Notes: generated by a model not told the origin, from the letters alone. Shown: positions 11,089 to 29,619, numbered from the stretch's first letter. The stretch is DNA of 64,000 nucleotides from PVC group bacterium (GCA_945890715.1 CAMDCX010000001.1:13751-77750); one strand, 5' to 3'. Made by a program: numbers and translations.

Positions 11089-11091
11089 GAC

Positions 11092-11736: not shown

Positions 11737-11780
11737 AGAACGGAGTCTGAGAACGCCCTGTCAGCCCATTGGACAATCTG

Positions 11781-11863: not shown

Positions 11864-11872
11864 TCTTGACGG

Positions 11873-13150
11873 TTATCCCTGGATGGTTTTCCACAGGAGG
11901 ATCAGATTCAGGGCAATGACGATGGCGGCCACCAGCCAGAGCCAGAGTTTTCCATACAGGGTGTTGGCATGGGTACCCATGACCCTTCGGGATGAAGTCA
12001 GGTAGATTTGCAGGACGATGGTGATGGGGAGCTGGATGCTGAGAAGAACCTGGGACACAATCAAGGCCTTGAAACTGTTGGTGACAAACATGACTGCGAG
12101 CAGGGCGACCCCAAGGGTAATTCCGACACCTATTTTTGAGAGCGGCTTCTGAATGTCGTAATTCCGGGAAAACAAACCGGCAAAAATGGATCCCCCCGCC
12201 ATCCCGGCCGTGAGGCTTGCCGATAACCCGGCACAAAGCAGGGCCAGGGCGAAGACCGTGGCGGCGAGCGCCCCGCTATGACCCAGCATCGGGTGCAGCA
12301 TTTCCTCCGCTTGCTCGAGGGAGCTCACCTTGACCTTCTGTTGAAAAAAAGTGGCGGCCGCCAGCAAAATCATGGCGCTGTTGATCATCCAGCCGACCAT
12401 CATCGAGAACAGGGTGTCAAGCCATTCAAACCGCAAATGACTGATGATGACGCCTTCGCCCTGACTATTCCATTGCCGGTTCTGAATGACCTCGGAATGC
12501 AGGAACAGATTGTGGGGCATCACCACCGCGCCCAGGACGCTCATCACAATCAGGATGGAGCCGGTGGGGAGATCGGGCGTCACCCAGCCCTTGGCCGCGC
12601 TGATCCAGTGGGTGTCGATCAGGGTCAGTTCAAACAGAAAGGCCAGCCCGATCAGGGAAACAAAGCCCACAATGATTTTCTCAAGGCGTTTGTATGAGTT
12701 CCAGAGGAGTAGCCCCGCCACAACCACGGTGGTAAGGATGGCTCCGACCTTGAGGGGAAGATGAAACAACATCTGAAGTGCGATGGCACCCCCCAGGATT
12801 TCCGCGAAGGCGGTCGCCACCGACGCCAGAACGGCGGAGCCTAGCGCCGGACGGGAGACCCATCGGGATAGGTGTTGCGTGGCCGACTCCGCCAGGCACT
12901 TTCCTGTTACAATTCCCAGGTGCGCCGCATTGTGCTGCAACAGAATAAGCATGATTGTACTCAAGGTCACCACCCAGAGTAACTGGTAGCCGAACTCGGA
13001 ACCCGCCGCCACGTTGGAGGCCCAGTTTCCGGGGTCGATAAAGCCCACGGTAACCAGCAGTCCTGGCCCCAGGAACCTCAGGGCATTCAAGGCGCCAGAG
13101 ACTTGCTTCTGCTGTCTTAGTCGCTCTCGGAATTGTTGAAAGAGTTTCAT
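11873..13150 (-). CDS. mntH: Nramp-family divalent metal transporter
   Basis: 'DPGN' and 'GAVVMPHNLFLHS' Nramp signatures. Confidence 0.9.
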   Translation of the reverse strand: MKLFQQFRERLRQQKQVSGALNALRFLGPGLLVTVGFIDPGNWASNVAAGSEFGYQLLWVVTLSTIMLILLQHNAAHLGIVTGKCLAESATQHLSRWVSRPALGSAVLASVATAFAEILGGAIALQMLFHLPLKVGAILTTVVVAGLLLWNSYKRLEKIIVGFVSLIGLAFLFELTLIDTHWISAAKGWVTPDLPTGSILIVMSVLGAVVMPHNLFLHSEVIQNRQWNSQGEGVIISHLRFEWLDTLFSMMVGWMINSAMILLAAATFFQQKVKVSSLEQAEEMLHPMLGHSGALAATVFALALLCAGLSASLTAGMAGGSIFAGLFSRNYDIQKPLSKIGVGITLGVALLAVMFVTNSFKALIVSQVLLSIQLPITIVLQIYLTSSRRVMGTHANTLYGKLWLWLVAAIVIALNLILLWKTIQG

Positions 13151-13263
13151 GTGTCGGGAACAATACCACGGTGATTATAAATTGTCTAAACTCGACACGT
13201 TTGCGTCATTACAGTATTTTCTCAGACTTTTACCGCGCCAGAATGGCGGGAAATGGGTGAATT

Positions 13264-14283
13264 ATGAATGCACAGGATGTAGTTGTTCTGAAAGAGCAGG
13301 GGTTGGCTGAGGCTAGGCAGGCGGCGACGCTGGCCGAGGTCGAGGCGGTTCGGATCAAGTATCTGGGTCGCAAAGGGGTGCTTCAGGAGGTTATGGACAA
13401 CCTGAAATCCGTGCCCGCCGAGGGGCGTCGGGATTTTGGACGTTGCGCCAATGAATTGAAGCAGGAGCTGACCGTTTTGCTGGATGAGCGGAAAACGGCG
13501 CTAGCGGCGGCGGAAAAGGCGGCGGGCCAGAAACAGTTTGATGTCACCATGCCCGGCGCCTGGCGGAGCCTGGGAACCCGTCACCCCGTTACGCAGGTGA
13601 TTGAGGAATCCATCCGCATTTTCAGCATGCTGGGCTTTACTGTGGCTGATGGCCCCGATATCGAAACGGAATACAACAACTTTGATGCCCTCAACACACC
13701 GGCGGATCATCCGTCGCGGGATACACAGGATACCTTCTGGCTGGATAACAAGACGCTGCTTCGCACTCAAACCTCGCCGGTCCAGATTCGTGTGATGGAA
13801 AGCCGCAAGCCGCCGATCCGGATCATTGCGCCGGGCCGCTGCTATCGCCGGGATACCACGGATGCCACGCACAGCGCGAACTTCCACCAGGTGGAGGGGC
13901 TGTATGTGGATCGCAAGGTGTCCATGGCTGATCTCAAGGGTGACATCACGTTTTTTGCCCACCAGATGATGGGGCCGAACGTTAAGGTGCGGTTCCGTCC
14001 GCATTTCTTCCCGTTCACCGAGCCGAGCGTGGAATATGATTTCTCGTGCCATGTGTGCGGCGGGTCCGGGTGCCGGGTCTGCAAGAACAGCGGCTGGATC
14101 GAAATTTCCGGCGCCGGCATGGTGAATCCGAAAGTGTTCACGATTGTCGGGTACGATCCCGAGGCGGTCACCGGCTATGCCTTCGGCATGGGCCTGGAGC
14201 GTATTGCCATGATCAAGTTCGGCATCGAGGATATCCGGTTGTTGTATGATAACGATGTAAGGTTCCTGTCCCAGTTCTCGTAA
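13264..14283 (+). CDS. pheS: Phenylalanyl-tRNA synthetase alpha subunit
   Basis: 'LRTQTSPVQ', 'FPFTEPS', 'FGMGLER'. Confidence 0.97.
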   Translation: MNAQDVVVLKEQGLAEARQAATLAEVEAVRIKYLGRKGVLQEVMDNLKSVPAEGRRDFGRCANELKQELTVLLDERKTALAAAEKAAGQKQFDVTMPGAWRSLGTRHPVTQVIEESIRIFSMLGFTVADGPDIETEYNNFDALNTPADHPSRDTQDTFWLDNKTLLRTQTSPVQIRVMESRKPPIRIIAPGRCYRRDTTDATHSANFHQVEGLYVDRKVSMADLKGDITFFAHQMMGPNVKVRFRPHFFPFTEPSVEYDFSCHVCGGSGCRVCKNSGWIEISGAGMVNPKVFTIVGYDPEAVTGYAFGMGLERIAMIKFGIEDIRLLYDNDVRFLSQFS

Positions 14284-14293
14284 GGGGTTGATT

Positions 14294-16723
14294 ATGAAGT
14301 TACCGTTGAGTTGGTTGAAAGAGTATGTCGATGTTGGCCTGAGTCCCAAGGAGCTGGCTTCCCTGCTGACGTTCTCCGGAACGGAAGTGGAGGGGATCAA
14401 GACCATTGGCGGGGATTTCACGGGAATCGTGGTGGGTGAAGTGCTTTCTGTCGAGCGGCATCCGAATGCCGACCGGTTGACCGTCTGTCAGGTGAACAGC
14501 GGGTCGGAAACCCTGACCGTGGTCTGTGGCGCGCCGAATGTGGCGGCCGGGATCAAGGTGCCGCTGGCCACTCTCGGAACCCTGGTTCCGAACGGCTTGA
14601 AGATCAAGAAGGCCAAGGTCCGGGGCGTCGAATCCTTCGGGATGCTTTGCGCGGCCGACGAACTGGGACTGTCCGAGGATCATAGTGGGTTGATGATTCT
14701 GCCGCCTGAGACCAAGGTCGGAACACCCTTTTCTGAAATTGCCGGGCCGCCGGAGACGGTGCTGGAACTTGAGGTGACGCCAAACCGGCCGGATTGCCTG
14801 AGCTTGATCGGGATGGCCCGCGAGGTGGCGGCCTTGCTGGGCAAGCCCCTGAAGATGCCGAGTCCGGTTGTGAAAGAAGAGGCTCGCACGGTCGAAAGTC
14901 TCGCCAGTGTCACCATTGAAGACGCGGTGGGATGTCCGAGATATACCGGCCGAGTGCTTTCCGGGATCACCATTGCCCCGAGCCCGCAATGGATGCAGCG
15001 GCGCCTGACGGCGGCAGGGATCCGTCCGATCAACAATGTCGTCGATATCACCAACTATGTCATGCTGGAATGCGGTCAACCGCTGCACGCTTTTGACTAC
15101 GAGTTGCTGGACGGCCACAAGATCATTGTGCGCCGGGCGAAGGCCGGGGAAGCTATGAGCACGCTGGATGGCACGGCGCGGGAAATCAATCCGGACATGC
15201 TGATGATTGCCGATGGCCGACGGCCCGTGGCCGTGGCGGGCGTCATGGGCGGGGCGGGGAGCGAAATCCGGGACGTCACCAAAACGGTTCTGCTGGAGAG
15301 CGCCTATTTCAAGCCGTCCGATATCCGGAAGACCTCCAAGAAGCTGGGGCTGTCCACCGACTCGTCCTACCGGTTCGAGCGCGGGGTGGATATCGAGAAC
15401 GTCGATTGGGCAAGCCGGCGTGCCGCGCAGTTGATGGTGGAACTGGCGGGCGGGGTGGCGGCGAAAGGGGTGATCGATGTCTTCCCGGCAAAACCGGCGC
15501 GTGGTCAGGTGTCGTTGCGGTTTGAGCGCGCCCGGGATCTTCTGGGAATTCAGATTGCCGATGAGGTGATCCTGACGATTTTCAAGGCGCTGGGATTGGG
15601 GCTTGTTTCCCGGGATGCCGTGTCTTGCTTGATGGAAATTCCCGCATACCGGGTTGACCTTAAGCAGGAAGCGGATCTGATCGAGGAAATCGCGCGCATT
15701 CACGGGTTGGATAAGGTTCCGTCGCCGTCTCCCGTGGCAAAGATTATTCCCGGCGCCGACGACAAGCCGACGCGTGCCATTCTGGCGTGTCGGGCGAATC
15801 TGGTCGGGCTTGGGCTTTCGGAAATCATGAACTACAGTTTCCTTTCCGGGCGCCTGCTGGACCTAGTGGGACATGGCGATCCGGAGAAGCGGGTCGTGCT
15901 GCCCAACCCGATCAGTGCGGATCACACGGTGTTACGGGATTCCTTTATTCCTCAGATGATTGAGACTTTAGGGAAGAACCGGGCGCGCCAGGCTCGGGAA
16001 GCGTCGTTATTTGAAATGGGCCGCGTATTCTTCAAGGACGACTCGGGAAAGAATGCCGAAGCCGACCGGATTTGCATTGGCCTGATGGGTCCTGTGGGGC
16101 GAACCGGGATGGCGAAATCCAAGCCGGTGAAGGACGAGGAGATGTTCCAGTGGATCACGGGCATCCTGGAGTCGCTCTGCCGCGCGCAGCATGTTCCGGA
16201 GATCGCGAAGGGCGGATTGGCGAGCTTGGATCTCGTGCTAAAGCCTGTAAAGAGCCCCTGTTATGAAGAGGGACGGGGCGTCAGCATCTGGATCTCCAGC
16301 GCCTGTGTTGGAACGATGGGGCTGGTTAGCGAACGGGTTCGCAATGAGTGGCGGCTGGTTGATCCTGTGGCGGTGCTTGAGCTTGATCTGGCGCCATTGG
16401 TGGCCCAGGCCCTGCGGATTCCGGTTTCCCGTGCCCTCGGGACGTTCCCCAGTGTCGATCGTGATGTGGCTCTGGTCGTTGATGATGGCATTTCGCACGA
16501 GGCGATTCTCAAGACCATTTGGACGGTGGCCCCGCCGGAATTGGTGGATGTCCGTTTGTTCGATATCTATCGTGGCGAAGGGGTCGGGAAAAACCGGAAG
16601 AGCATGGCGTATTCCCTGACTTATCGCTCGATGGAGAAGACGTTGACCGATGAGGTGGCGAACGGATTCCACGAGAAGGTGAAAGCCGCCATTTGCAAGG
16701 ATGTTGGGGCGGAAATACGATAA
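14294..16723 (+). CDS. pheT: Phenylalanyl-tRNA synthetase beta subunit
   Basis: 'HPNADRL', 'VVCGAPN', 'TPNRPD', 'RFERGVD', C-terminal FDX-ACB domain. Confidence 0.97.
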   Translation: MKLPLSWLKEYVDVGLSPKELASLLTFSGTEVEGIKTIGGDFTGIVVGEVLSVERHPNADRLTVCQVNSGSETLTVVCGAPNVAAGIKVPLATLGTLVPNGLKIKKAKVRGVESFGMLCAADELGLSEDHSGLMILPPETKVGTPFSEIAGPPETVLELEVTPNRPDCLSLIGMAREVAALLGKPLKMPSPVVKEEARTVESLASVTIEDAVGCPRYTGRVLSGITIAPSPQWMQRRLTAAGIRPINNVVDITNYVMLECGQPLHAFDYELLDGHKIIVRRAKAGEAMSTLDGTAREINPDMLMIADGRRPVAVAGVMGGAGSEIRDVTKTVLLESAYFKPSDIRKTSKKLGLSTDSSYRFERGVDIENVDWASRRAAQLMVELAGGVAAKGVIDVFPAKPARGQVSLRFERARDLLGIQIADEVILTIFKALGLGLVSRDAVSCLMEIPAYRVDLKQEADLIEEIARIHGLDKVPSPSPVAKIIPGADDKPTRAILACRANLVGLGLSEIMNYSFLSGRLLDLVGHGDPEKRVVLPNPISADHTVLRDSFIPQMIETLGKNRARQAREASLFEMGRVFFKDDSGKNAEADRICIGLMGPVGRTGMAKSKPVKDEEMFQWITGILESLCRAQHVPEIAKGGLASLDLVLKPVKSPCYEEGRGVSIWISSACVGTMGLVSERVRNEWRLVDPVAVLELDLAPLVAQALRIPVSRALGTFPSVDRDVALVVDDGISHEAILKTIWTVAPPELVDVRLFDIYRGEGVGKNRKSMAYSLTYRSMEKTLTDEVANGFHEKVKAAICKDVGAEIR

Positions 16724-16730
16724 GCGATCA

Positions 16731-17195
16731 ATGAAGTGCCTCATCCAGCGCGTCAGTCGTGCCAGTGTCACCGTGGACGGGCAGGTTACCGGCTCCATAG
16801 GGAAAGGTTTTGCTATTTTACTTGGCGTAAGGATCGGCGACACGGATGCCGACTCGGTTTATCTGGCTGAGAAGACGGCCGGGCTGCGGATTTTTCCCGA
16901 TGCACAAGACAAGATGAACCTGGCACTGGGTGAGGTGGGTGGTGCGGTGTTGGTTGTTTCCCAATTCACCCTTTACGCCGATACCCGGAAGGGGAACCGG
17001 CCGAGCTTTATCCATGCCGCTCCGCCCGCCGAAGGCGAGCGGCTCTATGAAGTCTATGTGGGTCATCTCCGGCGGATCCTGGGGTCCGGCCAGGTGGCCA
17101 CCGGCACCTTCCGCGCCAGCATGAGCGTCGAGATCATCAACGATGGACCGGTTACGATTGAGTTGGTGTCAGATGGCCGTGGCGGCGGTAGGTAA
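16731..17195 (+). CDS. dtd: D-aminoacyl-tRNA deacylase
   Basis: 'IQRV', 'SQFTL', 'NDGPVT'. Confidence 0.95.
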   Translation: MKCLIQRVSRASVTVDGQVTGSIGKGFAILLGVRIGDTDADSVYLAEKTAGLRIFPDAQDKMNLALGEVGGAVLVVSQFTLYADTRKGNRPSFIHAAPPAEGERLYEVYVGHLRRILGSGQVATGTFRASMSVEIINDGPVTIELVSDGRGGGR

Positions 17196-17208
17196 AGGTG
17201 GGACAGCG

Positions 17209-19011
17209 TCAACTGTGAGCCGAACCGCCCGGTTGATACTCTGGTAGACGGATGAGGAAGGTGGTGCCCGCGCCCGGCTGGCTTTGGGCGGTGATCGTTC
17301 CCCCGTGTTGTTGGACGATCTTCTGGCAGACCGCGAGTCCGATTCCCGACCCTGGATACTGATCTTCTGAATGAAGCCGCTGGAAGGGTTTGAAAATTTG
17401 TTCAACATGCTTCTCGTCGAAACCGATCCCATTGTCCCGTATCCGGATCTCAATCAGGCCCTTGCCGGGGCTCCGGCTCGAGACGCAGACGCGCGGGGCA
17501 CAGCCGGGCGTGACAAATTTAAGGGCATTGCCGATAAGATTCAGGAACAGTTGATACAATTGCAGTTGATCGCCCAGTACTGTCGGCAGGATCCCGACCT
17601 CCACCGCGGCTCCTGTTTCCTTGATGCGGGGTGCTAAATCTTCAAGGGCCTGATTGACCGGATTCGACAAGGCCACAGGAAAGAACACCCGGTCGCCTTT
17701 ATTCACGCGGGCGTACATCAGGAGCCCCTGAATTAATTGCTGCATGCGCTGGGAGGATTTTTCAATGTGACTCAGAAAATCACGCGCCGTGTCCGGCAGG
17801 GCGGCCGCGCACTCTTCGCGAAGGAGTTCGCTGAAGCCGATGATCCGTCGCAGGGGGGCTTGTAAATCATGCGAGGCGATGTAGGCAAACTGATCGAGCT
17901 CGGCATTTGACCGGGCCAGTTCCTCCGACTTTCGAAAGACTTCAGCTTCTGCTTGTTGGCGAAGACTGATCAAGCGGGCGTTTGTAAGGCTAAGGGCGCA
18001 CAGGCTGACAATATCAAGGGCCAGATTAAGGTAGTCCTGACCGTGATGCGGCAAGGTGATCGTGTCGGCGATCACAAATCCCAAGGTTGCATTCTGGTAT
18101 TTGACACGTACGGAAAACCCGCTTTCCGTCATGGCGGAAGTCTCATCGGGTCTGAACCGTGCCATCCAGGCCTCTATCCATTCGGCATCATCAGGTTTCG
18201 GGAAGTTGCTGTAGATTCTTTTTGTCTGACCCCCATCAGGCGAAACATAGGCCACGCGCTCGGCTCCAAACAGCATGGTGAAAAGCTCGAGTATGGCCTG
18301 GATCGCGTCTTCCTCATTCATAATCCGCGTCAATTTCACCAACAGATCCATGGCTAGCACATGGTCGGCCAGTTTCTTGTTGGCACGCGCGAATTCCTCT
18401 TTCACCAGAAGCTCGGCTTCACGGGTGCGCCACGCCTGGACAAGATAACTCAGAATGAGTCTGAAATGGTCCAGTCCCACGGACATGACTTCGGTCGGAA
18501 GTCCAAGGTATTCGGCGCAATCGTGCAGGCGGGTCTGAGCCTCCGGATCGACGCCGGTATCAAGCAGAACCATGCGGCGTGCGCCTTCGGCAAAAAACAT
18601 TCGTGCTGTTTCCCGGTCAAACTGCCAGGCGTCAATATGCTGTTGCCAGTGTTCCAGCCAACCGGAGGTGACCAGGTGCGATCCGTCACAAAGACACCGG
18701 TCAATGGTCGTCTTGTTGATAAGCATATGAAAGCATAATTCCTCCCGGTGAATCCGGTGATACCGGTCCTCGGACAAGGCCGTTTTATTCTGGTTCAGGA
18801 GGTAGCAGGCCCCGACCAGAATAGTGGTCTGTCCATTTTTTCCCGAGTCATAAAACTGGTGTGTCAGCGTCGCCGTCAGATCCGCCCGGGGGCGAACACA
18901 GAGATCGGGAAATGCCGAGACGCTGACGTTTTCAAAGCCTTCGGATTGGAGGATGACCTGTGCTTCCTTGAGGTAGTACTGGCAGACGAGGAGATGGAGA
19001 CTGGGAGGCAT
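17209..19011 (-). CDS. Cytoplasmic sensor histidine kinase: DUF1638-like N-domain, GAF-like segment, HisKA, HATPase_c
   Basis: H-box 'FAYIASHDLQAPLR', N-box 'NLIGNALKF', 'DNGIG', 'GSGIGL'; N-terminal 'LVC..LKE / GAC / TSGW / LLDTG / AEYLGL' pattern; no transmembrane segment seen. Confidence 0.85.
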   Translation of the reverse strand: MPPSLHLLVCQYYLKEAQVILQSEGFENVSVSAFPDLCVRPRADLTATLTHQFYDSGKNGQTTILVGACYLLNQNKTALSEDRYHRIHREELCFHMLINKTTIDRCLCDGSHLVTSGWLEHWQQHIDAWQFDRETARMFFAEGARRMVLLDTGVDPEAQTRLHDCAEYLGLPTEVMSVGLDHFRLILSYLVQAWRTREAELLVKEEFARANKKLADHVLAMDLLVKLTRIMNEEDAIQAILELFTMLFGAERVAYVSPDGGQTKRIYSNFPKPDDAEWIEAWMARFRPDETSAMTESGFSVRVKYQNATLGFVIADTITLPHHGQDYLNLALDIVSLCALSLTNARLISLRQQAEAEVFRKSEELARSNAELDQFAYIASHDLQAPLRRIIGFSELLREECAAALPDTARDFLSHIEKSSQRMQQLIQGLLMYARVNKGDRVFFPVALSNPVNQALEDLAPRIKETGAAVEVGILPTVLGDQLQLYQLFLNLIGNALKFVTPGCAPRVCVSSRSPGKGLIEIRIRDNGIGFDEKHVEQIFKPFQRLHSEDQYPGSGIGLAVCQKIVQQHGGTITAQSQPGAGTTFLIRLPEYQPGGSAHS

Positions 19012-19015
19012 GATG

Positions 19016-20062
19016 TTAGATCCAATCAAGGGGGTAGCGGCCCCAGCGGCGAACCGCATCCGCGATAGTGAGCAGGACGGAATCCGGAACCTGCCAGGGA
19101 ATTTCCCCATGGTTATCTGTTAAAACAAATCCGCCGCCCGGCCCGGCTTTTGCGATCGCCTCCTTGACCCTGATCTCGGCCTCGGCGGGAGTCCAGTGCC
19201 GCATTTCGATCGCATTCAAATTGCCCATAACGGTAAGCCGTCCCCGGGCTGCGGCCTTGACAGCGGCCAGATCTTCCAGAAAACTGGCTCCGATCCCGAC
19301 GGTGCCCGTTTGAACGACATCATCGAGAATTGCCAGGCAACGGCCGGAGGCAAAGCTGGTTGCAACGGCTCCTTTGATTTTCGACAATGTTCTTCTGGCG
19401 ATCAGGAACCCTGTTTTCAGGTATAGTGCCCGGGGAATGATGGTGGGGGACGATACCGGGTCGGCATACGCGATGGCTCCTGCGCCCGCCTCCAGTTGTG
19501 CGTTGGCCCACTCCACGCAAAAGGCTTCGTTCAGGCGCATGAGTTGCTCAAACCGTTCTGGTTGTTCGTGGAGTAAAAGCAGGTAATTCTCGAAACCCAA
19601 CTGCATGACCGGCAGTGAAAAGGGCGAAATCACCGAGCCGAACACGGGGACCTCGTTGCCCGCCCGGTCCTTCAGGAGACGAATGAGACGCAGCACTTTC
19701 TGCAGGCAGGGGGTATCGCGCACCCGGGGCGGTTCAAGGCGGGCGATGTCCGCCGATCCTGACAGGGGCGGTTGGCCTGCATTGGGCGGGCCATCTTCCC
19801 GATAGATCACTTCACCTCCCCACGCCTCAGCCTCCACAGCCCCATACATGAAACCGAGCAGGGCATCATGTCCATAGCGGACGCGGAGTCGCCACTGGCC
19901 TTCCGCCACGAGATCCGGCCGGCTGAAGTAGTCCCGGATTGAGAGGCCGAATTCCCTCGCGCCCTGCATGACGGTGGGAAGCAGGAAGGGAACGCGATCC
20001 GGTTCCCTGTGGGACATCGCCGTGCTGAGGCGTTCCGAGGAGGTCATGGACTCCGGTTTCAT
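19016..20062 (-). CDS. Uroporphyrinogen decarboxylase / MtaA-CmuA (MT2) fold protein
   Basis: 'ERL.TA...EPDRVP', 'SPFS', 'AQLEAGA', 'MGNL', 'GGGFVL'; lacks the HemE RQAGR motif. Confidence 0.85.
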   Translation of the reverse strand: MKPESMTSSERLSTAMSHREPDRVPFLLPTVMQGAREFGLSIRDYFSRPDLVAEGQWRLRVRYGHDALLGFMYGAVEAEAWGGEVIYREDGPPNAGQPPLSGSADIARLEPPRVRDTPCLQKVLRLIRLLKDRAGNEVPVFGSVISPFSLPVMQLGFENYLLLLHEQPERFEQLMRLNEAFCVEWANAQLEAGAGAIAYADPVSSPTIIPRALYLKTGFLIARRTLSKIKGAVATSFASGRCLAILDDVVQTGTVGIGASFLEDLAAVKAAARGRLTVMGNLNAIEMRHWTPAEAEIRVKEAIAKAGPGGGFVLTDNHGEIPWQVPDSVLLTIADAVRRWGRYPLDWI

Positions 20063-20691
20063 GGTAGAACCCCCGCTAATCGTGAAATGGCCGCAATGGC
20101 ATCGGATGCCGTGTTGCCGAAGGCGTCCGCTCCGACCTCTTTCCAGAGCTCTTCATCAAAGCGGAAAGGGGCGCCTCCTACTACAATTAGCGGGACGCAC
20201 CCCTTTGCCTGAAGCCGTGTGCGGAGCTCTTTGATCCGAAGCGCCGCCGGCAGCATGAGTGCGGAGAGAAGCAGAATACGAATCCCGTCGGTCTTGATGT
20301 GGGCGACCAGTTGGTTCATGTCGGTTCGTCCATAATTTCGCAACGAAAACCCGCTCGCCCGCAATGTCGAGTATACAATTCTCAAGCCCAGCAAATGATA
20401 ATCTTCAAGGGCTGCGATTGCCAGCGGCGGCATGCTTTTCCGGGTGTCATCGGAGGGGGGGAGAATGGCGTCAACCGCTTCCTCGCAAAGGCGACCGCTC
20501 ATGTATACCTGAGACAAGGAAACGCTCCCTTCCTCCCAGCCGACGCCAATCCGCTCCAGGGCCGGAACAATCAGGCTCTCGATTCTTGTGAGCGGTGAAG
20601 GCGAAGCGGAGGCTTCCGACAGCACGCGGTTGACGGTCACCCTGTCAAGCGACAGGAGAGCACTCTCCAGTTGATCCAACGGCGACTCCAT
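20059..20691 (-). CDS. Corrinoid (cobalamin-binding) protein with cap and Rossmann domains
   Basis: 'IVPALERIG..W' cap, 'EDYHLLG' (DxHxxG), 'LSALM' (SxL), 'VVGGAP'. Confidence 0.88.
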   Translation of the reverse strand: MESPLDQLESALLSLDRVTVNRVLSEASASPSPLTRIESLIVPALERIGVGWEEGSVSLSQVYMSGRLCEEAVDAILPPSDDTRKSMPPLAIAALEDYHLLGLRIVYSTLRASGFSLRNYGRTDMNQLVAHIKTDGIRILLLSALMLPAALRIKELRTRLQAKGCVPLIVVGGAPFRFDEELWKEVGADAFGNTASDAIAAISRLAGVLP

Positions 20692-20858
20692 GGCGTTCTC
20701 TTTTTGCTCGCTCCTATTACTCGGAACGTATTCCAGCCCGCCGGGCAAACCTGTAATCAGCTTCTCGATCTGAAACTACGCGCAATTCAAGTGTTTGTCA
20801 GCTATTTTTATTTTGACTTTTATCCGTCACTGCCAACTGGTATTGTCCGATTAAAGCC

Positions 20859-22007
20859 ATGAGTAAAATTCTCAAAGCCCTGATTGTCGAGGATTCTGAG
20901 TGTGATGCACTCCTGCTGTTAGGGCACCTGAAGCGGGGAGGGTACGATACGACATCCCTTCGCGTCGATAATGCTTCTGATCTTGTGGCAGCATTAAGCG
21001 AAAGAGAATGGGACATTGTTTTTTCAGATCACAACATGCCGCAATTCACCTCCATTGAGGCCCTGGAGCTTGTGCGCGCCCGCGATCCGGACATTCCTTT
21101 CCTGATTGTTTCCGGGAGCATCGGGGAAGATGTGGCGGTGGCGTCCATGAAGGCGGGAGCCCAGGACTATCTGATGAAGGGCAACCTGACCCGTCTTGTA
21201 TCGGCCGTTGATCGCGAGTTGAAGGATGCCGGGGATCGCCGCGCACGCAAGGTGGCGGAGCATGCACTTTTGGCGCGTGAGGAGGAACTCAGAATCGCCC
21301 GCGAAGTTCAACAGTTGCTCTTCCCGATTTCCATGCCTGTCATCGGCGGTTACGATATCGCGGGCGCCTCTTGCCCGGCGGACGCCACAGGCGGTGACTA
21401 CTACGATGTTATCGTCCGTCCGAATCACGATATTTATGTGATTGTCGGGGATGTGACCGGGCATGGGCTCGGGCCGGCCCTGCTCATGACCGATGTTCGG
21501 GCATACCTCAGGGCACTTGTCCTGGAGGACAGATCCCTCGAGGATCTCATGACTCTGGTGCGTCACCTCCTGCTTGAAGATCTTGGAAACGACCGGTTTA
21601 TCACCATGGTGATCGCCCGGTTCACTCCCGGAGAGGGTGTCATGGATGTGATTAATGCGGGGCATCCAACGGGCTATATTCTTGCGCCTGGAGGCGGGAT
21701 AAAAACGGAACTGAATGCCACTGTTCCAGCCTTGGGTGTTGACGCCGAGGTGGATCGACTTGAGTCCTGCAAGGTCCGGCTGGAAGCAGGAGAACTGGCT
21801 GTATTCCTGACGGATGGGATTCTCGAGGCGTGTTCACCGGCTGGCGAGGAGTTCGGGGTGCCGCGCCTGCTTGGGATTCTCCAGCGCGAAAGGGACCGGC
21901 CCGCCGCTGAAATCATCAGGATTCTCTTCGATGAAGTGCGCAAGTTTGGTTCCCCGGAAGGGATTCAGGACGATATCACTGCGGTGATCATCAAACGCTC
22001 GTCCTAA
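20859..22007 (+). CDS. Response regulator with PP2C/SpoIIE (RsbU-like) phosphatase output
   Basis: REC 'IVEDS', 'SDHNMP', 'YLMK'; PP2C 'GGDYYD', 'DVTGHG', 'NAGH', 'TDGI', 'DDIT'. Confidence 0.92.
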   Translation: MSKILKALIVEDSECDALLLLGHLKRGGYDTTSLRVDNASDLVAALSEREWDIVFSDHNMPQFTSIEALELVRARDPDIPFLIVSGSIGEDVAVASMKAGAQDYLMKGNLTRLVSAVDRELKDAGDRRARKVAEHALLAREEELRIAREVQQLLFPISMPVIGGYDIAGASCPADATGGDYYDVIVRPNHDIYVIVGDVTGHGLGPALLMTDVRAYLRALVLEDRSLEDLMTLVRHLLLEDLGNDRFITMVIARFTPGEGVMDVINAGHPTGYILAPGGGIKTELNATVPALGVDAEVDRLESCKVRLEAGELAVFLTDGILEACSPAGEEFGVPRLLGILQRERDRPAAEIIRILFDEVRKFGSPEGIQDDITAVIIKRSS

Positions 22008-22044
22008 AGGGACAGGGTGTGGGCGTTCGACTTAAGAGCACGAC

Positions 22045-22830
22045 ATGGAAGACCCTATCGGAACGGAAAAAATTGTCCACGGGCAACGGTGGGGTGAGTT
22101 TCATAACGGCTACTTCTCCGATCCGGTGATCGTGCGCCCCCTGATTGACGCTGCCCTGCGAGTTCTGACTAAATCGCCCGTCGATGTCGTTGTTGATTTA
22201 GGGGGTGGAACGGGTTTTCTGTTATCCCAGTTGGCCTCGAACGGGATCGGCGCCACCACGAAGCTGGTCAATGTCGACTGCTCGGACGCCCAGCTTGCGC
22301 TCAAGGATTCTGCCGGTATTGTTCGGGTTCATGCGTCCATCGGAGAGTTCCGTCGCCGGGAGGTTGTCCCCGGAGATCAGCGACTTTTCCTGCTCATGAG
22401 GTCTGTTCTTCATTATCTCGGGGAAGACGGATTGCTCCCCTTATTGCGTCATCTCCGTGGTCAGGTTGCGGAAGGGGAGTTCTTCGTTCATCAAAGCGCC
22501 TCCTTTAAGAATAAAGAGGATGCGGCATGTCTCAATGCCCTGTACCGGCACATGCGGTCCCGGAAGTGGTATCCCTCTGTGCATCATTTAAAAAACTGTT
22601 TGCTAAAATCCGGCTGGCGCGTAGCGGACGCCATGGAGGCCCCATCTCTTGTACTGACCTCGGAGGATCTCGGGCTGCGGTATGCGCTGAACACAAGTGA
22701 CATCGTTCGCATACGGGAGGCGATGGCGGGTGAATTCGGTGGGGAAGGTCCTGTCTTTCGTCTGACGCCATCAGGGTTTCAGGCCGACTTGCATTACCGG
22801 ATTTTCACCTGTGTCGCGATGTCATCCTGA
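22045..22830 (+). CDS. Class I SAM-dependent methyltransferase
   Basis: 'VVDLGGGTG', 'VD.S..QL', 'SVLHY'. Confidence 0.75.
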   Translation: MEDPIGTEKIVHGQRWGEFHNGYFSDPVIVRPLIDAALRVLTKSPVDVVVDLGGGTGFLLSQLASNGIGATTKLVNVDCSDAQLALKDSAGIVRVHASIGEFRRREVVPGDQRLFLLMRSVLHYLGEDGLLPLLRHLRGQVAEGEFFVHQSASFKNKEDAACLNALYRHMRSRKWYPSVHHLKNCLLKSGWRVADAMEAPSLVLTSEDLGLRYALNTSDIVRIREAMAGEFGGEGPVFRLTPSGFQADLHYRIFTCVAMSS

Positions 22831-23364
22831 AGACGATGCGAAGCGGCGGATGAAGAGGAGCCAGGCGGCGAGGGTTTTGGAGTCATCGACAAGGCCGCCG
22901 TCAATCAGGGATTCAAATTCCTCCCGTGTCAGGTATTCCACGGTGATCCGTTCGTCAGGGTCGCCCTCCTGAAGTTCGGCAGATTCTGAAAGTTCCGCAA
23001 AGAACAGATGAATGATTTCGTCAATATACCCCGGGGAGGGGTAGATAACGCCCAGAGAGTGGAGGGAAACGACATCATGGCCGGTTTCCTCCTTGATTTC
23101 CCGCGCAGCGCAATCCTCGGGGCGTTCTTCGAGTTCCTTCCGCCCGGCAATAATTTCAAGAACCTCGCGTTCAATGGGTTTCCGGAACTGCTTTACGAAA
23201 ACATAACGGCCGTCAGGCAAACGGGCCACGGCGGCAATGGCACCAGGATGCCTGATGATTTCCCGATGGGCGCGATGTCCAGGCTCCAGTTCAACCACCT
23301 GGGTTTCCACCGAAATCATACGGCCCGTGAAGACAGGCGTGATGGAAAGGGTTCTTTCGTTCAT
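22822..23364 (-). CDS. NUDIX hydrolase (ADP-ribose pyrophosphatase-like)
   Basis: Nudix box 'AGRKE..E.PEDCAAREIKEETG'; 'SPG'; 4-bp overlap with rfbB. Confidence 0.88.
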   Translation of the reverse strand: MNERTLSITPVFTGRMISVETQVVELEPGHRAHREIIRHPGAIAAVARLPDGRYVFVKQFRKPIEREVLEIIAGRKELEERPEDCAAREIKEETGHDVVSLHSLGVIYPSPGYIDEIIHLFFAELSESAELQEGDPDERITVEYLTREEFESLIDGGLVDDSKTLAAWLLFIRRFASSSG

Positions 23365-24389
23365 GAACAAGACCTGTCCCGCCACCCGTACATCGTGTCG
23401 TAGGCCTTGAGGTATTCGCCGCTGCGGATGCGATCCCACCAGGCTTTGTTGGCCACATACCAGTTGACCGTTTCCTTCAGGGCGTCCTCGAACCGGTGGG
23501 CGGGTTCCCAGCCCAATTCGGTCTTGGCTCGCGTGTTGTCCATGGCGTAACGCCGGTCGTGACCGGGGCGATCCTTGACATAGGTGATCAGGCTTTCCGG
23601 CTTACCGAGGATTTTCAGGATTCCCTTTACGATCTCGATATTCGGGACATCGTAGTTGCCGCCGAGATTGTAGACTTCCCCTGATTTTCCTTTTCGGAGC
23701 ACCGTATCGATGCCGGAACAGTGATCCATGACATAAATCCAGTCTCGCACATGCATGCCGTCGCCATAGACGGGAAGGGGCTTGTCGGCGAGGGCGTTGG
23801 AGATCATGAGAGGGATCAGTTTTTCAGGGAATTGATATGGGCCGAAGTTATTGGAGCAGCGGGTGATGACGGCGTCCAGTCCGTGCGAGTGCTGGGCGGC
23901 GCGGACCATGAAGTCGGCCCCGGCCTTGGTCGCGGAGTAGGGGTTATTGGGCTGGATCGGGGTCTCTTCCGTAAAGGCGCCGGTCGGGCCGAGGCTTCCA
24001 TACACTTCGTCGGTGGACACCTGCAGGAACCGGGGTACTTTGTGCTTCCGGGCGGCATCGAGAAGGTTCTGGGTTCCCATGATATTGGTCTTGATGAATT
24101 CACGGGGGCCCATGTGCAGGCTGCGATCCACATGACTTTCGGCGGCAAAATTGAGGACGGCGTCAAAGCGGTGTTCCCTGAAAAGCCGGTTCACATCGCG
24201 GGTTGAGGTGATGTCGCCGTGCACGAACACATGGCGGGAGTCATTCTTGATATCAGTGAGATTTTCAAGATTCCCCGCATAGGTCAGGGCGTCAAGATTG
24301 ACGATCTCATCCGCCGGATGAGTCTTTAAAATATAATGTACAAAATTACTGCCGATAAACCCGGCTCCCCCTGTTACCAATAATTTCAT
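23361..24389 (-). CDS. rfbB: dTDP-glucose 4,6-dehydratase
   Basis: 'TGGAGFIGS', 'AAESHVDRS', 'STDEVYG', 'YSATK', 'DRPGHDRRY'. Confidence 0.95.
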   Translation of the reverse strand: MKLLVTGGAGFIGSNFVHYILKTHPADEIVNLDALTYAGNLENLTDIKNDSRHVFVHGDITSTRDVNRLFREHRFDAVLNFAAESHVDRSLHMGPREFIKTNIMGTQNLLDAARKHKVPRFLQVSTDEVYGSLGPTGAFTEETPIQPNNPYSATKAGADFMVRAAQHSHGLDAVITRCSNNFGPYQFPEKLIPLMISNALADKPLPVYGDGMHVRDWIYVMDHCSGIDTVLRKGKSGEVYNLGGNYDVPNIEIVKGILKILGKPESLITYVKDRPGHDRRYAMDNTRAKTELGWEPAHRFEDALKETVNWYVANKAWWDRIRSGEYLKAYDTMYGWRDRSCS

Positions 24390-24457
24390 AAGTGTTCTCC
24401 TGCCCGAATGTATAGGGGACAGACCCGTCCGGTTCCAGCATTTTTTCTGCAAGGAGC

Positions 24458-24490
24458 GATTATGATTAAGATTACGATTACGATTATGAT
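24458..24490. repeat. GATTAY hexamer tandem repeat
   Basis: GATTATGATTAAGATTACGATTACGATTATGAT in the rfbB/fprA divergent spacer. Confidence 0.7.
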
Positions 24491-24549
24491 GAAGATATGG
24501 TATACATGATCGGTCTGTATTTCTTATTTATAAGGAGATGAGGTGTTTT

Positions 24550-25737
24550 ATGCCGATTGAACTAGCTAAAGGGGTTTACTGGGTGGGTGTGACCGATTGG
24601 GGCATCCGTCATTTTCACGGGTTTGAGCTCTCGGTTCATCGTGGAACGACTTATAATTCCTATCTCATTATGGATGAGAAAATTGCTTTGGTGGATACCG
24701 TTTGGTCGCCCCATTCGGAGGAATTCCTTGCCCGGGTCAGGGAATTGGTGGATCCCGCCAAGATTGATTATGTGGTGGTGAATCATGCGGAGCCGGACCA
24801 TTCCAGCAGTTTGCCCGCTCTGATGAAGCTATGCCCCAATGCCACAGTGGTGGTTTCCAAAAATGGGGCCACCAGTGTTCCCGGGCATTATCATGAAAAC
24901 TGGAATTTCAAAGCCGTCAAAACCGGGGATCGGATCAGCTTGGGCAAAAATGAACTGGTTTTTGTCGAGGCGACGATGCTGCACTGGCCGGACACTATGT
25001 TCTGCTACCTGACCGGGGAACAGATCCTGATGTCGAATGATGCCTTCGGTCAGCACTATGCCACGGCTTTTCTGTTCAACGATCTGGTCAATCAGGAGGA
25101 ACTGTATGAGGAGGCGTTGAAATATTTTGCCAATATTTTAACCCCCTACACAGATAAGATCTTGAAGAAAATTGACGAAATTCTGGCTCTGAACCTTCCG
25201 GTCAAGATGATTGCGCCGAGTCATGGGGTGATCTGGCGTCAGGATCCTCTCCAGATCGTTAAGCAATACCAGGAATGGTCCCTGCAGAAACCGGCTCCCA
25301 CGGCGGTGGTTTTGTATGACACCATGTGGCGTGCCACCGAAAAGATGGCAAAGGCGATTGCCGAGGGCTTGATTGAATGCGGCATCGACTGCAAGGTCTC
25401 TCACGCGGCGACTGCAGACAGCAACGACCTGATGGTGGAGATCTTTAAGGCAAAACTGGTTGTTTTGGGATCCTGTACCTATAACAATGGCATTCTTCCC
25501 TCCATGGCAAAGATTCTGGAGGAGATGCGGGGACTTCGATTCAAGAACAAGATTGGCGCCGCTTTCGGATCCTACGGGTGGAGCGGGGAGTGCGTGAAGT
25601 CCATCGAGGAAATCTTCCAGAAGTCCGGCATTCCCCTGGTGCGCTCTGGCCTTCGTGTCAAGTGGCAGCCCAGTGACGCCGATCTGCAGTTGTGTCGGGA
25701 GTTTGGACGCGAACTGGCGGCGGCGACCAAGGGCTGA
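24550..25737 (+). CDS. fprA: Class A flavodiiron protein (O2/NO reductase)
   Basis: 'HAEPDH', 'HWPD', 'DAFG', 'PSHG' diiron ligands plus flavodoxin 'FGSYGWSG'. Confidence 0.93.
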   Translation: MPIELAKGVYWVGVTDWGIRHFHGFELSVHRGTTYNSYLIMDEKIALVDTVWSPHSEEFLARVRELVDPAKIDYVVVNHAEPDHSSSLPALMKLCPNATVVVSKNGATSVPGHYHENWNFKAVKTGDRISLGKNELVFVEATMLHWPDTMFCYLTGEQILMSNDAFGQHYATAFLFNDLVNQEELYEEALKYFANILTPYTDKILKKIDEILALNLPVKMIAPSHGVIWRQDPLQIVKQYQEWSLQKPAPTAVVLYDTMWRATEKMAKAIAEGLIECGIDCKVSHAATADSNDLMVEIFKAKLVVLGSCTYNNGILPSMAKILEEMRGLRFKNKIGAAFGSYGWSGECVKSIEEIFQKSGIPLVRSGLRVKWQPSDADLQLCREFGRELAAATKG

Positions 25738-25740
25738 GTT

Positions 25741-27441
25741 TTAGAAAAATGCCCCGGCTAGAAGGCTTTCCGCTTCGGAAATCCATGCCTTGGAAAATTT
25801 GTTTTTCAGGGGGAACTGAATCATCACCCGCCTTGACGCGATTTTTCCCGTCAGAGCCACCGGTGCGTAACGGTCAATGAGGTGGCGGGGCTGGCTCCGA
25901 ATCACTTCGATCAGACCATCCAGTAGATCCAGCGGTTCTTCATGATCCGGGCATAGCACAAACTGGAACAGCCCGTCGGGCTCCCTTCGGATGGCGGTTC
26001 GGATATACCCCTCCAATTCTTTTCGGTGGGCGAATAGATCGGAGCCAGAAAATAGACAAGCGCACCGGGTGGAGGTAATGGCGGGCTCTATTCTGGGGTC
26101 GGAGGCTGTTACTTTAATCTGGTTTTTAAAGAGCATCAGCCGGGTTCCCGTGAATGCCCCGGTGTGAATATCCGACCGCAATTTCGGGTGGCGGGCAATC
26201 AGATGCTCAATGGCAAGGAAGTCCTCGGTATTCATGGTATCGGTTTCCGTCACTGCATAAGGGGGGTGTGTCAGCGCACGCATGCGCCATTCCTTGCGCC
26301 GGTCACGCAGTTCTGTTCCCGGCAGAAGCAACGTTTGCAGGCATTGGACATTTGTGGACGGGAGTTTCAAGGCCCAGTTTACTGATCGTCTTACATCGCC
26401 TGTGCCCTGTAGCGGAAGACCATACATAACATCCAGGGTGACTTTGATCCGGCGCCGGGTGAGGAGCCGAATTCCCGATTCCAGCTTCCCGAGTGAAGTG
26501 GGGCGACGGATTGCCTTGAGCACGGCGGGATCACGGCTTTGCAGGCCCACTTCAACATCCACAAAACGGGCCCGCGCCAGGTTGTCCGCTTGTTCTGCGG
26601 TAAGCCGTTCCGCATTGATCTCGGCAAAAAACGCCAGATTTCTGGACTGGTTCAGGTGGGCCAGACGCTGGACAATTTCGCCGAAATGCGGATGGGCGTT
26701 GAAGGAGGGATCCACGAAGCGGATTTCCTTCGCTCCGAGACGACGCAGGGCGCGAACGCGTGACAGAATGTCGTCCGGCTCCAGGAAAGACATGGACTGG
26801 CGCAGATGGGGATAGCGGCAATAGGTGCAGCGCATGGGGCAGCCCCGCGAGGCTTCGAGATAGGCCATTCCTCGGGCATCCGGTCGGCTGGCTCCATAGC
26901 CTGGGGGCGGCAGTTGATGCGACAGGCAGACGGCAGGCGGGGGCTCGGATCCCCAGCGATAGCCGTTACCGGTTCGCGTCGCCACGGTTGAATAGGGGAC
27001 GGATTTTCCGGTGCGAAAGGCGCGCAGCAGGGCCGGAAAAACAATTTCCCCTTCGCCCACCACCAGGGCATCGGCGGTTTTGTTTTTGAAAAGGAAGGGA
27101 TGGGCTCGGGCCACTTCGGGGCCGCCCAGGACGATCCGGGTTTCAGGAAGCCGATTGCGCAAAAGTCGGGCCAGTCGCAAGGTCCGTTCAATATTCCACA
27201 GGTATAGTGTTCCGGCGAGAACATCAGGGGCGAGGCGCGTCAGGGTGTTGAGCAGGGACTGGTTTCCCGCGTCCTGTTCTGATTCTGGAAGTCTGCAGAA
27301 CTCGTAATGAGCCCCTTCGCCCGCTTGTTCGGCGGCATACTGGAGGGTGGCGGCGGCCAGCGGGACATTCTCATGGTCCGCCTGGAGATCGTTATCCAGC
27401 TGGGGGAGTTGAATAAATAAAACCCTTTTCCGTTTCGGCAT
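25741..27441 (-). CDS. B12-binding-domain radical SAM protein
   Basis: 'YLWN', 'LGGPEV', 'EASRGCPMRCTYC', 'GLQS', 'YGLP', 'LLPGT'. Confidence 0.88.
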   Translation of the reverse strand: MPKRKRVLFIQLPQLDNDLQADHENVPLAAATLQYAAEQAGEGAHYEFCRLPESEQDAGNQSLLNTLTRLAPDVLAGTLYLWNIERTLRLARLLRNRLPETRIVLGGPEVARAHPFLFKNKTADALVVGEGEIVFPALLRAFRTGKSVPYSTVATRTGNGYRWGSEPPPAVCLSHQLPPPGYGASRPDARGMAYLEASRGCPMRCTYCRYPHLRQSMSFLEPDDILSRVRALRRLGAKEIRFVDPSFNAHPHFGEIVQRLAHLNQSRNLAFFAEINAERLTAEQADNLARARFVDVEVGLQSRDPAVLKAIRRPTSLGKLESGIRLLTRRRIKVTLDVMYGLPLQGTGDVRRSVNWALKLPSTNVQCLQTLLLPGTELRDRRKEWRMRALTHPPYAVTETDTMNTEDFLAIEHLIARHPKLRSDIHTGAFTGTRLMLFKNQIKVTASDPRIEPAITSTRCACLFSGSDLFAHRKELEGYIRTAIRREPDGLFQFVLCPDHEEPLDLLDGLIEVIRSQPRHLIDRYAPVALTGKIASRRVMIQFPLKNKFSKAWISEAESLLAGAFF

Positions 27442-27577
27442 GGGATGCACCTTACCACAACCCGCCGCGAAAACGCGAGAGTTCGACATAGCCAAAGAAC
27501 GATTGAAACAAGGGCGATGAGGCGATATACTCGCCCGTTTTACAGTGAAATTGCTGAGCCGGAAGTGGAGTTGAACC

Positions 27578-28703: not shown

Positions 28704-28710
28704 GGGGTTT

Positions 28711-29595: not shown

Positions 29596-29619
29596 TAGTG
29601 ATTATCCGGGCATCCTCAA

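Follow-up and report, generated by a model that had tools for sequence, protein, structure and literature searches.

The corrinoid protein, URO-D/MtaA-fold barrel and DUF1638-GAF region described here very probably constitute, to judge from sequence and genomic context, a signalling input module on which the output can be exchanged. The triad recurs ahead of varied outputs across phyla, and it is therefore likely to represent an undescribed sensor. No description of the triad cassette was found in the literature, whose supplementary tables could list such loci.

The triad is encoded on the minus strand of a 64,000-nt stretch of DNA from a PVC group bacterium (the window). It consists of genes for the corrinoid (B12-binding) protein (20059..20691, 210 aa), the barrel (19016..20062, 348 aa) and a DUF1638-GAF-histidine kinase (17209..19011, 600 aa). 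Across a divergent intergenic region of 167 bp (20692..20858), the plus strand encodes a REC-PP2C phosphatase of the SpoIIE/RsbU type (20859..22007, 382 aa; Pfam Response_reg and SpoIIE), followed by a class I SAM methyltransferase-like gene (22045..22830) with sub-cut-off Pfam matches only. An earlier note had described three tightly packed minus-strand ORFs, among them genes for a DxHxxG corrinoid protein and a soluble kinase, in a block flanked by housekeeping genes. That description was borne out. The coordinates agree, with an ATGA overlap at 20059-20062 and a 4-nt gap at 19012-19015; Pfam places Dtd and NUDIX genes on either side; the corrinoid protein exceeds the cut-offs for B12-binding_2 and B12-binding and contains D97-x-H99-x-x-G102; and the kinase shows no clear membrane-spanning helix, its hydropathy over 19 residues peaking at 1.58.

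Because the block resembles its neighbours in G+C content and in GC3 (0.62-0.68 vs 0.60-0.73), composition cannot date its insertion. A scan of the intergenic region 20692-20858 revealed no sigma-70-like promoter site, and the promoter and terminator scans were at chance level (2 vs 2.5 and 6 vs 6.1). In two RNA runs from one freshwater sample, 6-7% of words matched; the RNA contigs, over 13 of 30 bins, were short and of low depth, and several came from other organisms.

The gene-neighbourhood search that the earlier note had asked for revealed a conserved triad with swapped outputs. The census comprises the best 80 of 385 related loci, from 16 phylum groups. A corrinoid gene lies upstream of the barrel gene in 79/80 loci, and a homolog of DUF1638 and/or GAF lies downstream in 77/80, so the gene order is not due to chance. 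The output is a kinase in 47 loci, GGDEF in 12, SpoIIE (PP2C) in one and PAS-only in two; of the remainder, three have no recognised output, 11 are cut by a contig end, two lack a third gene and two leave no room for one. On a FastTree phylogeny of the barrels (58 labelled rows; L025, L060 and L066 omitted as near-duplicate or split genes), kinase and GGDEF outputs interchange six times, and both occur within one starred Methylococcaceae clade. The hosts include aerobic methanotrophs, sulfur oxidisers and strict anaerobes, with sulfate reducers, Clostridia and some archaea among the carriers; Azoarcus sp. KH32C (AZKH_RS24050/24055/26485) is a cultured one. One locus lacks the upstream corrinoid gene, and a superoxide dismutase gene precedes both archaeal copies.

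Catabolic operons are evidently not the usual setting of the triad. RACo occurs in the flanks of 3/80 loci and MttB beside 2/80 (MttB is present in 12/50 host genomes and was not found in this one), and no recurring methyl-transfer partner was seen among the 118 of 215 nearby ORFs scanned. The earlier note had reported the absence of a reactivase. This holds for the block, where neither a second methyltransferase nor a reactivase was found, but not for the genome, which encodes RACo and a canonical DUF1638 elsewhere. Since the zinc triad of the barrel and the EH motif of the corrinoid protein (see below) are absent and a reactivase is nearby in so few loci, the sequence evidence places the cassette outside both catabolic clusters and photoreceptors of the CarH type.

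The corrinoid and barrel proteins might still form an orphan methyl-transfer or detoxification enzyme with which the kinase is only co-operonic. In two Methanomassiliicoccaceae loci the pair is present but a third gene is not; besides RACo, this genome contains eight matches to the URO-D family and, next to MTHFR and Fhs, a canonical corrinoid protein; and the catabolic mec cassette, according to the accessible text of 10.1101/2021.08.30.458270, includes a kinase and a DUF/RACo pair. A metabolic pair is nevertheless improbable: DUF1638, a domain of B12 systems, is fused into a signalling protein, and in one locus (L030) to the barrel itself; the third gene often has GGDEF or PP2C at its end instead of being paired with a transcription regulator; and no acceptor enzyme recurs.

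The corrinoid protein has a four-helix cap and a Rossmann domain. Its nearest solved structures are the methylamine corrinoid proteins 7XCN and 3EZX, and it scores below the curated cut-off of TIGR02370 (63.4 vs 215.3). The cap is family-specific (G49-x-x-W52 ... S60-Q61-V62-Y63-M64, C69). In 73/73 rows G49, W52, Y63, D97, H99 and G102 are invariant, as are S143, L145, G172 and G173 of the SxL and GG motifs. The earlier note had listed light as a possible signal, and a sensor of the CarH/photocobilin type would account for the invariant GxxW (G49/W52), given in the accessible text of PMC11796333 as an AdoCbl photoreceptor signature. Also in its favour are weak sequence matches to 8J2Y/8J2W and AerR, and the B12 domains of photoglobin and photocobilins that feed GGDEF, SpoIIE and kinases (PMC8717448, PMC11796333, in the parts accessible). 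Against it, the closest structures are methyltransferase corrinoid proteins, and no bilin-binding partner recurs. Moreover, the EH position, which we take to lie ten residues after the Trp, after CarH W131/E141/H142, is V62-Y63 (V/I-Y in the family), and the GxxH position reads E96-D-Y-H99. Light sensing is considered highly improbable.

The barrel was confirmed as a member of the UroD/MtaA fold, as the earlier note had proposed (Pfam URO-D, 172.6 bits; best PDB match MtaA 4AY7, E 2e-10), but it is not an intact MT2, for which a His-Cys-Cys zinc triad is the criterion in the accessible text of PMC10418091. In the alignment, LHICG of 4AY7 stands opposite TSFASG. The zinc H-x-C position corresponds to S236-F-A238, with A238 in 78/78 rows and H236 in 69/78, the zinc histidine being lost as well in the window's clade (S236 in 6/78). 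The loop D316-N-H318-G-E320 has no Cys where other barrels have G-C; that Cys falls on H318 in an ungapped register and on G319 in a MAFFT alignment. The protein scores below every NCBIfam cut-off (mtaA_cmuA TIGR01463, 93.3 vs 235.4; NF040654, 80.2 vs 400; NF041608, 63.6 vs 600; hemE TIGR01464, 35.6 vs 302.95), and an intact MT2 was rejected on both grounds. HemE, in which an aspartate and a tyrosine have active-site roles, was likewise rejected: in addition to the low TIGR01464 score, Y73 and M153 occupy the positions that in 4EXQ/6W2O hold the aspartate of FSD and the tyrosine of ACY.

Mean column identity is highest in the barrel (72%), followed by the corrinoid protein (57%) and DUF1638-GAF (38%). 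E77, A238, H318 and E320 are invariant and D201 and D316 nearly so (78 rows), and H33 and H236 change together in the window's clade. This conservation, in particular that of E77, H318, E320, D201 and D316, would suit a sensor of methyl or alkyl donors, in which the barrel is an MT1-like transferase or receptor that methylates Co(I) and the kinase reads methyl-Co(III); the paired change is such as a shift in specificity might give. Even without the cysteines the barrel could be active: O-methyltransferases of the URO-D superfamily have carboxylates or non-ligands in place of one or both zinc cysteines (PMC10418091, accessible text). RACo of the sister cassettes described below would supply Co(I), and a methyl signal is favoured by the Azoarcus KH32C triad, which sits among C1-oxidation genes, between fae/fhc and quinoprotein-associated genes. 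However, none of eleven Azoarcus neighbour proteins has a homolog flanking the 80 loci, the methylotrophy setting being seen only in this one case, no demethylating enzyme recurs in the cassette, no methyl substrate is obviously common to the hosts, and one sister cassette (L104) lacks the barrel. Donor sensing is regarded as rather unlikely.

The kinase begins with a DUF1638-like domain (aa 1-200, 18412..19011, minus strand; Pfam 45 bits, cut-off 27), an assignment shared by 30/30 Atlas matches (0.94 to DUF1638 clusters). Its cysteines C10, C38, C69 and C93, all four of which are present in 54/66 rows, align ligand for ligand with C9/H37/C68/C90 of the genome's own canonical, Cys3His DUF1638, and are predicted to form a metal or Fe-S site. 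A sequence search for solved relatives gave only two chance saposin matches, and with the structure model (pLDDT 92.8) Foldseek found nothing at E 0.001 and the best VIA Z was 7.7; the lack of a solved relative is evidence neither of a novel fold nor of a function. A linker helix and GAF-fold domain follow (approximately aa 205-365, 17917..18411), overlooked in the earlier note and not called by Pfam. The region is modelled at pLDDT 88.9, and its GAF domain matches the PDE6 GAF 3JAB (VIA Z 16.2, rmsd 2.0 over 143 residues). Of the third gene, GAF is the part kept most constantly, with a profile match downstream in 71/80 loci; DUF1638 is absent in 7/80 that retain barrel and GAF. The catalytic core (17209..17916) comprises HisKA (372-438) and HATPase_c (480-592), with H381 in the H-box and N491, D526 and G554 in the N, G1 and G2 boxes.

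Both divergent genes had been listed with the block in the earlier note. The REC-PP2C belongs with the triad, in one and the same insertion, but the SAM methyltransferase lies outside the module: of the 80 loci only L004 and L005, both near-identical to the window, have it next to the triad, and in a relative without the cassette (G016/L114) it lies directly behind dtd. Its candidacy as corrinoid methyl donor was rejected, given its absence from 78/80 loci and its cassette-free occurrence. A tie to the nearby flavodiiron gene was also rejected, as the rfbB/NUDIX synteny of that gene is found in cassette-free relatives (L114, L121). The REC-PP2C retains receiver residues D57 and K107 and the PP2C metal aspartates, and full-length counterparts, 49-50% identical, are encoded directly downstream of the kinase in two loci (L056, L076). 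It is likely the cognate receiver of the kinase.

Cassettes with a RACo of their own were found in methanotrophs. Three (L102, L103, L078) combine RACo with a related corrinoid protein, a barrel without zinc triad, a Cys3His DUF1638 and a kinase; L110 shows the same as far as its contig end, and L104 has kinase-RACo-corrinoid-DUF1638. These come from ten hand-picked RACo regions, of which five lack a sister cassette. If the output instead distinguished empty from loaded corrinoid protein, the module would report cobamide availability. Neither donor nor reactivase would then be needed, in keeping with the 18/50 host genomes (incomplete bins) in which RACo was not found, and cobalt/B12 genes do lie near a few loci (CbiM/CbiQ at L043, CobB/CbiA at L068). 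Such genes are, however, non-recurring neighbours (3 proteins among 118 scanned); an Rfam search of 10000-30000 gave no match, and thus no cobalamin riboswitch near the block; and the conserved barrel pocket, the cysteine site and the RACo of the sister cassettes would be left unexplained. This reading is accorded a low probability.

If the module is a signalling input, the chances that cobalt redox state is its signal are about evenly balanced; that it is a cytoplasmic sensor in which the oxidation state of cobalt switches the kinase is given somewhat less than an even chance. In such a sensor B12 would load at H99 of the corrinoid protein, the barrel would cover the upper corrin face, and the corrinoid would be reduced in trans by the genome's RACo. 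Whether the cobalt is reduced Co(I) or oxidised Co(II) would most likely depend on the opposing actions of the reductive activator of the cell and of oxygen or some other oxidant. Once oxidised, the corrinoid protein would be recognised by a metal or Fe-S centre in DUF1638, as happens when B12 is reactivated, and the signal would reach H381 by way of the linker helix and GAF. Phosphate is predicted, from genomic evidence, to move from H381 to D57 of the divergently encoded REC-PP2C, which may act on a partner-switching target.

The redox reading is supported by the synteny across 16 phylum groups, the swapping of outputs and the lack of a recurring methyl donor or acceptor enzyme. The RACo sister cassettes, the mixture of aerobic and anaerobic hosts, the archaeal superoxide dismutase neighbour and the lost zinc His also support it, and the one genetic link found for DUF1638, in the accessible text of 10.1101/192971, is its co-fitness and co-occurrence with a RamA-like reactivase in methionine synthesis. 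Against it, the invariant polar residues and top conservation of the barrel are easier to reconcile with ligand binding or catalysis than with a passive covering role. Also counting against it are the loci without DUF1638, the hosts without a RACo match, the hand-picked RACo regions, the archaeal loci without a third gene, the locus without an upstream corrinoid gene, and the divergent REC-PP2C arrangement, which is seen only in near-identical relatives.

Among known systems, MtaC/MtaA and MtbC/MtbA (4AY7, 7XCN, 3EZX) share the stand-alone cap-and-Rossmann DxHxxG protein and the adjacent URO-D-superfamily barrel gene, but the pair described here has no zinc triad, no family-level score and no MT1, carries W...SQVY in the cap rather than F...PEVL, and is coupled to a signalling protein. 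DUF1638 is also found beside corrinoid proteins with RamA/RACo in split methionine synthase (10.1101/192971) and in MecGH (10.1101/2021.08.30.458270), as far as the accessible texts show; here it is Cys4 rather than Cys3His and GAF-linked to a kinase, with no RACo in the block. As described in the accessible text, mec differs in having several methyltransferases, an MtrH-type acceptor enzyme, a PocR-domain kinase and a DNA-binding regulator. CarH, AerR and photocobilins/photoglobin (PMC11796333, PMC8717448, accessible parts) likewise place GxxW-type B12 input before GGDEF, SpoIIE or kinase, but the present family lacks EH/GxxH and any bilin domain and employs a separate methyltransferase-type corrinoid protein, a barrel and a cysteine-rich domain. 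The type 1 mlp clusters (PMC10418091, Kountz and Balskus) also combine MtaA-like and corrinoid proteins outside methanogens, with no tetrahydrofolate methylase, but their Mlps number two or three and carry His-Cys-Cys, and a Ram protein is present; that text nowhere uses the words 'sensor', 'signal' or 'DUF', and the mlp cluster was rejected as an earlier description of the cassette. The Methanosarcina kinases MsmS, RdmS and MA4377 are similarly tied to corrinoid methyltransferase genes, but have their own sensor domains and act on mts transcription, with no corrinoid-protein input described in the accessible parts of PMC11784639 and 10.1101/2021.03.04.434021.

More broadly, and tentatively, at rather less than even probability, the module may exemplify a widespread class of B12-chemistry sensors built from corrinoid reactivation parts and reporting oxygen or another oxidant. 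In its members a dedicated corrinoid protein would cycle between Co(I) and Co(II), with a cysteine-less MtaA-like barrel as cap and a DUF1638 metal centre plus GAF as reader, and kinase, c-di-GMP or phosphatase outputs would be interchangeable. Two forms may exist: in one, as in the window, a Cys4 DUF1638 is fused to the output; in the other, exemplified by Methylobacter, the DUF1638 is of the Cys3His type and accompanied by a RACo of the cassette. The characterised B12 sensor proteins found in the literature respond to light; sensing of cobalt chemistry without light, if true, would give two-component and c-di-GMP signalling a new kind of input. It would also open DUF1638 to direct study, the fused kinase or cyclase serving as a ready read-out; the accessible text of the genetic study (10.1101/192971) makes no specific proposal for this domain. 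Many family members are annotated as uroporphyrinogen decarboxylase or MtbA, names that would then be mis-annotations.

The three minus-strand genes described in the earlier note exist and are as tightly packed as it claimed, as judged from ORFs and Pfam matches. The first (20691–20059) encodes a corrinoid protein (Pfam B12-binding_2 and B12-binding) and shares an ATGA overlap at 20059–20062 with the gene for a URO-D/MtaA-fold barrel (20062–19016; Pfam URO-D). This is followed, after a 4-nt gap, by the gene for a histidine kinase (19011–17209; Pfam DUF1638, HisKA and HATPase_c). The starts at 20748 and 19110 in the ORF list are upstream extensions; homologs start at the later ATGs. No clear membrane helix was found in the kinase. 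A GAF fold, missed by Pfam, is predicted at approximately residues 205–360 (model of residues 1–365, pLDDT 88.9), and it matches the PDE6 GAF domain (VIA Z 16.2, rmsd 2.0, 143 residues). The divergent gene encodes a REC-PP2C protein (Pfam REC and SpoIIE), and the gene after it (22045–22830, plus strand), SAM methyltransferase-like, gave only weak class I methyltransferase matches in Pfam.

Searching GTDB genomes with the barrel yielded 385 relatives among 410 candidate stretches, and the best 80 of these relatives (47–99% identical) were fetched with their surroundings as loci. The 80 loci fall into 16 phylum groups by record title, with hosts including Methylococcaceae, Thiotrichaceae, betaproteobacteria, Desulfobacterota, Anaerolineae, Clostridia, Spirochaetota and two Methanomassiliicoccaceae; they are not independent, as three (L004, L005 and L025) almost duplicate the window and there are several further close pairs. 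Using profiles built in this analysis, a corrinoid gene was found directly upstream of the barrel in 79 of the 80 loci (it is missing in L046), while downstream 70 have a DUF1638 homolog, 71 a GAF homolog and 77 at least one of the two. The other three are two archaeal loci that lack a third gene and one that stops at a contig end. When proteins were searched with the barrel alignment, 4042 of the 8000 candidates scored matched at E 1e-30, a figure that takes in more distant URO-D families; named matches were labelled uroporphyrinogen decarboxylase or MtbA. In the two Methanomassiliicoccaceae loci (L033:3892–6748 and L034:6667–9524), the corrinoid–barrel pair lies directly behind a gene for an Fe/Mn superoxide dismutase and has no DUF1638-GAF gene behind it. 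The sole plasmid match, from the cultured organism Azoarcus sp. KH32C (plasmid pAZKH, NC_020548.1; L128:8378–13527), contains the triad and a second kinase, flanked by fae/fhc genes and quinoprotein-associated genes.

The third genes of the 80 loci carry a kinase output in 47 cases, GGDEF in 12, SpoIIE in one, PAS only in two and none recognised in three; the remainder are cut by contig ends (11), or have no third gene (two) or no room (two). These assignments derive from Pfam scans of 63 proteins and, for the rest, from separate inspection of the loci. On a FastTree phylogeny of 78 barrels, the kinase/GGDEF label changes six times among 58 labelled rows, and both outputs are present inside a single starred Methylococcaceae clade. 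The neighbourhood comparison proposed in the earlier note, that the output domain swaps while the triad stays fixed, was thus borne out by the loci and the tree. The triad is a fixed input with mobile outputs, and it is likely to have a signalling role. Seven loci scattered over separate parts of the barrel tree (L009, L056, L058, L069, L075, L076 and L079) keep the barrel and GAF without DUF1638, and the constant coupling element is therefore the linker helix plus GAF rather than DUF1638. A barrel–DUF1638 fusion in L030 could be a sequence error, and two DUF1638-GAF proteins without a Pfam output end in a short helical tail (L041:8914–10275) or a cysteine-rich tail (L061:9049–10386). The cassette is real and widespread, and searches of the open-access literature found no description of it. 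Within that literature it is undescribed: its parts are known, and its design is unlike that of any characterised sensor found there.

The history of the locus was examined in 13 same-genus genomes carrying the NUDIX gene. In two of them, G002 and G013, dtd adjoins NUDIX with the block absent; G005 has a short gene in between; and the SAM methyltransferase gene of G016 stands directly behind dtd without the triad. By these gene orders, the four genes from approximately 17197 to 22035 are a single insertion (or were lost once, in G016), and the methyltransferase gene, previously counted with the block, is an insertion of its own between dtd and NUDIX. It belongs, with its counterpart from G016 (L114), to a family with 357 or more members, most of them without a name. 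A barrel of at least 57% identity was found in six of 40 relatives. The sister clade of the window's barrel (97 support) includes L056 and L076, in which a REC-PP2C gene, its product 49–50% identical, lies directly behind the kinase gene; for this reason REC-PP2C is likely to be the cognate output for the window's clade, not for the whole family. L006 has a REC and a more distant REC-PP2C, and the window's genome contains a single STAS-domain match and one further PP2C. Also near the block are genes for a flavodiiron-type protein (beta-lactamase fold and flavodoxin; 24538–25737, plus strand), a B12-binding radical SAM protein (25741–27606, minus strand) and an Nramp transporter (11873–13150, minus strand); no link of these to the cassette was found.

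RACo, the reductive corrinoid activator, is present in the flanks of three of the 80 loci and MttB in those of two, and clustering of 1804 flank ORFs found no recurring metabolic partner. A catabolic cluster, which the earlier note had named as the normal setting that would count against its proposal, was accordingly rejected. Pfam scans of 118 of the 215 nearby non-signalling ORFs showed a varied assortment, including a single pterin-binding protein and one further URO-D protein. That the corrinoid protein and barrel form a metabolic pair which happens to have a regulator next to it is considered improbable. Among 50 host genomes, which are incomplete bins, 32 gave a RACo match and 12 an MttB match. 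The absence of a reactivase noted earlier holds for the block and fails for the genome, which encodes RACo elsewhere (contig C2, L098:4798–6675), together with a canonical corrinoid protein beside MTHFR and Fhs (C22, L096:4010–7293) and a canonical stand-alone DUF1638 (C27, L097:3320–4027). These scattered parts resemble those of a split methionine synthase or of a methyl-transfer system. The 2.1-Mb genome (89.5% complete) also has two homocysteine S-methyltransferase domains and eight URO-D-family matches; an MttB match was not found in it.

Mean column identity is highest for the barrel (72%), followed by the corrinoid protein (57%) and DUF1638-GAF (38%). The barrel scores below every NCBIfam cut-off. 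Its TSFASG aligns with LHICG of MtaA, the zinc Cys position being Ala in 78 of 78 rows and the zinc His position being His in 69 of 78 and, in the window's clade, Ser; no Cys occurs in the last loop, D316-N-H318-G-E320. According to PMC10418091, His-Cys-Cys marks S-methyltransferases, and O-methyltransferases replace one or both Cys. On that basis the aligned residues would exclude thiol methylation by the barrel, and not other chemistry. The corrinoid protein has DxHxxG intact in 73 of 73 rows, with cap G49-x-x-W52 and Y63 invariant. Of the B12 photoreceptor signature (GxxW, EH, GxxH and GxxxP; PMC11796333), GxxW is present and EH and GxxH are missing, and light is a most improbable signal. 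In DUF1638, 54 of 66 rows have the full set C10, C38, C69 and C93, whose aligned counterparts in the genome's canonical copy are C9, H37, C68 and C90; this suggests a putative metal or Fe-S site. The DUF1638 model (pLDDT 92.8) had no clear match to any solved fold.

Ten RACo regions were hand-picked from hosts in which RACo seemed unexpected: five lie in related cassettes, one (L109) belongs to a cluster of metabolic appearance, and in the other four RACo stands alone. The order RACo-corrinoid-barrel-DUF1638-hybrid kinase occurs in two Methylobacter hosts (L102:7058–13248 and L103:6861–13261) and, as far as the contig end, in L110:511–4461. L104:3861–9842 is barrel-less (kinase-RACo-corrinoid-DUF1638) and L107 DUF1638-less (corrinoid-barrel-RACo-kinase). 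In L041 and L078 (567–7259) a second, RACo-type cassette stands beside the first; that of L078 has its barrel fused to the corrinoid protein. The hosts of L102, L103, L110, L104 and L078 are Methylococcaceae and one Hyphomicrobiales bin. Sister barrels likewise lack the His-Cys-Cys triad, their DUF1638 proteins are stand-alone and Cys3His, and the L-A/S-Q cap and GGAP-F/Y motif of the window's corrinoid protein recur in most of the sister ones. The presence of a reductive activator in such a signalling cassette points to Co(I) as a working state of these systems.

In the mechanism envisaged, the corrinoid protein would hold B12 through H99, covered by the barrel, and would be kept reduced by RACo acting in trans. 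Oxidation would alter its contact with DUF1638-GAF, switching kinase H381 and then receiver D57. Cobalt redox is tentatively ranked first as the sensed signal, because the one genetic link found for DUF1638 is to reactivation (10.1101/192971), a demethylating partner does not recur, one sister cassette has no barrel, and the hosts span the oxygen gradient. Sensing of B12 availability is considered improbable. A methyl donor, somewhat less probable, follows closely behind cobalt redox because the barrel pocket is so highly conserved and the Azoarcus KH32C copy lies among C1 genes, a neighbourhood that does not recur in the 80 loci.
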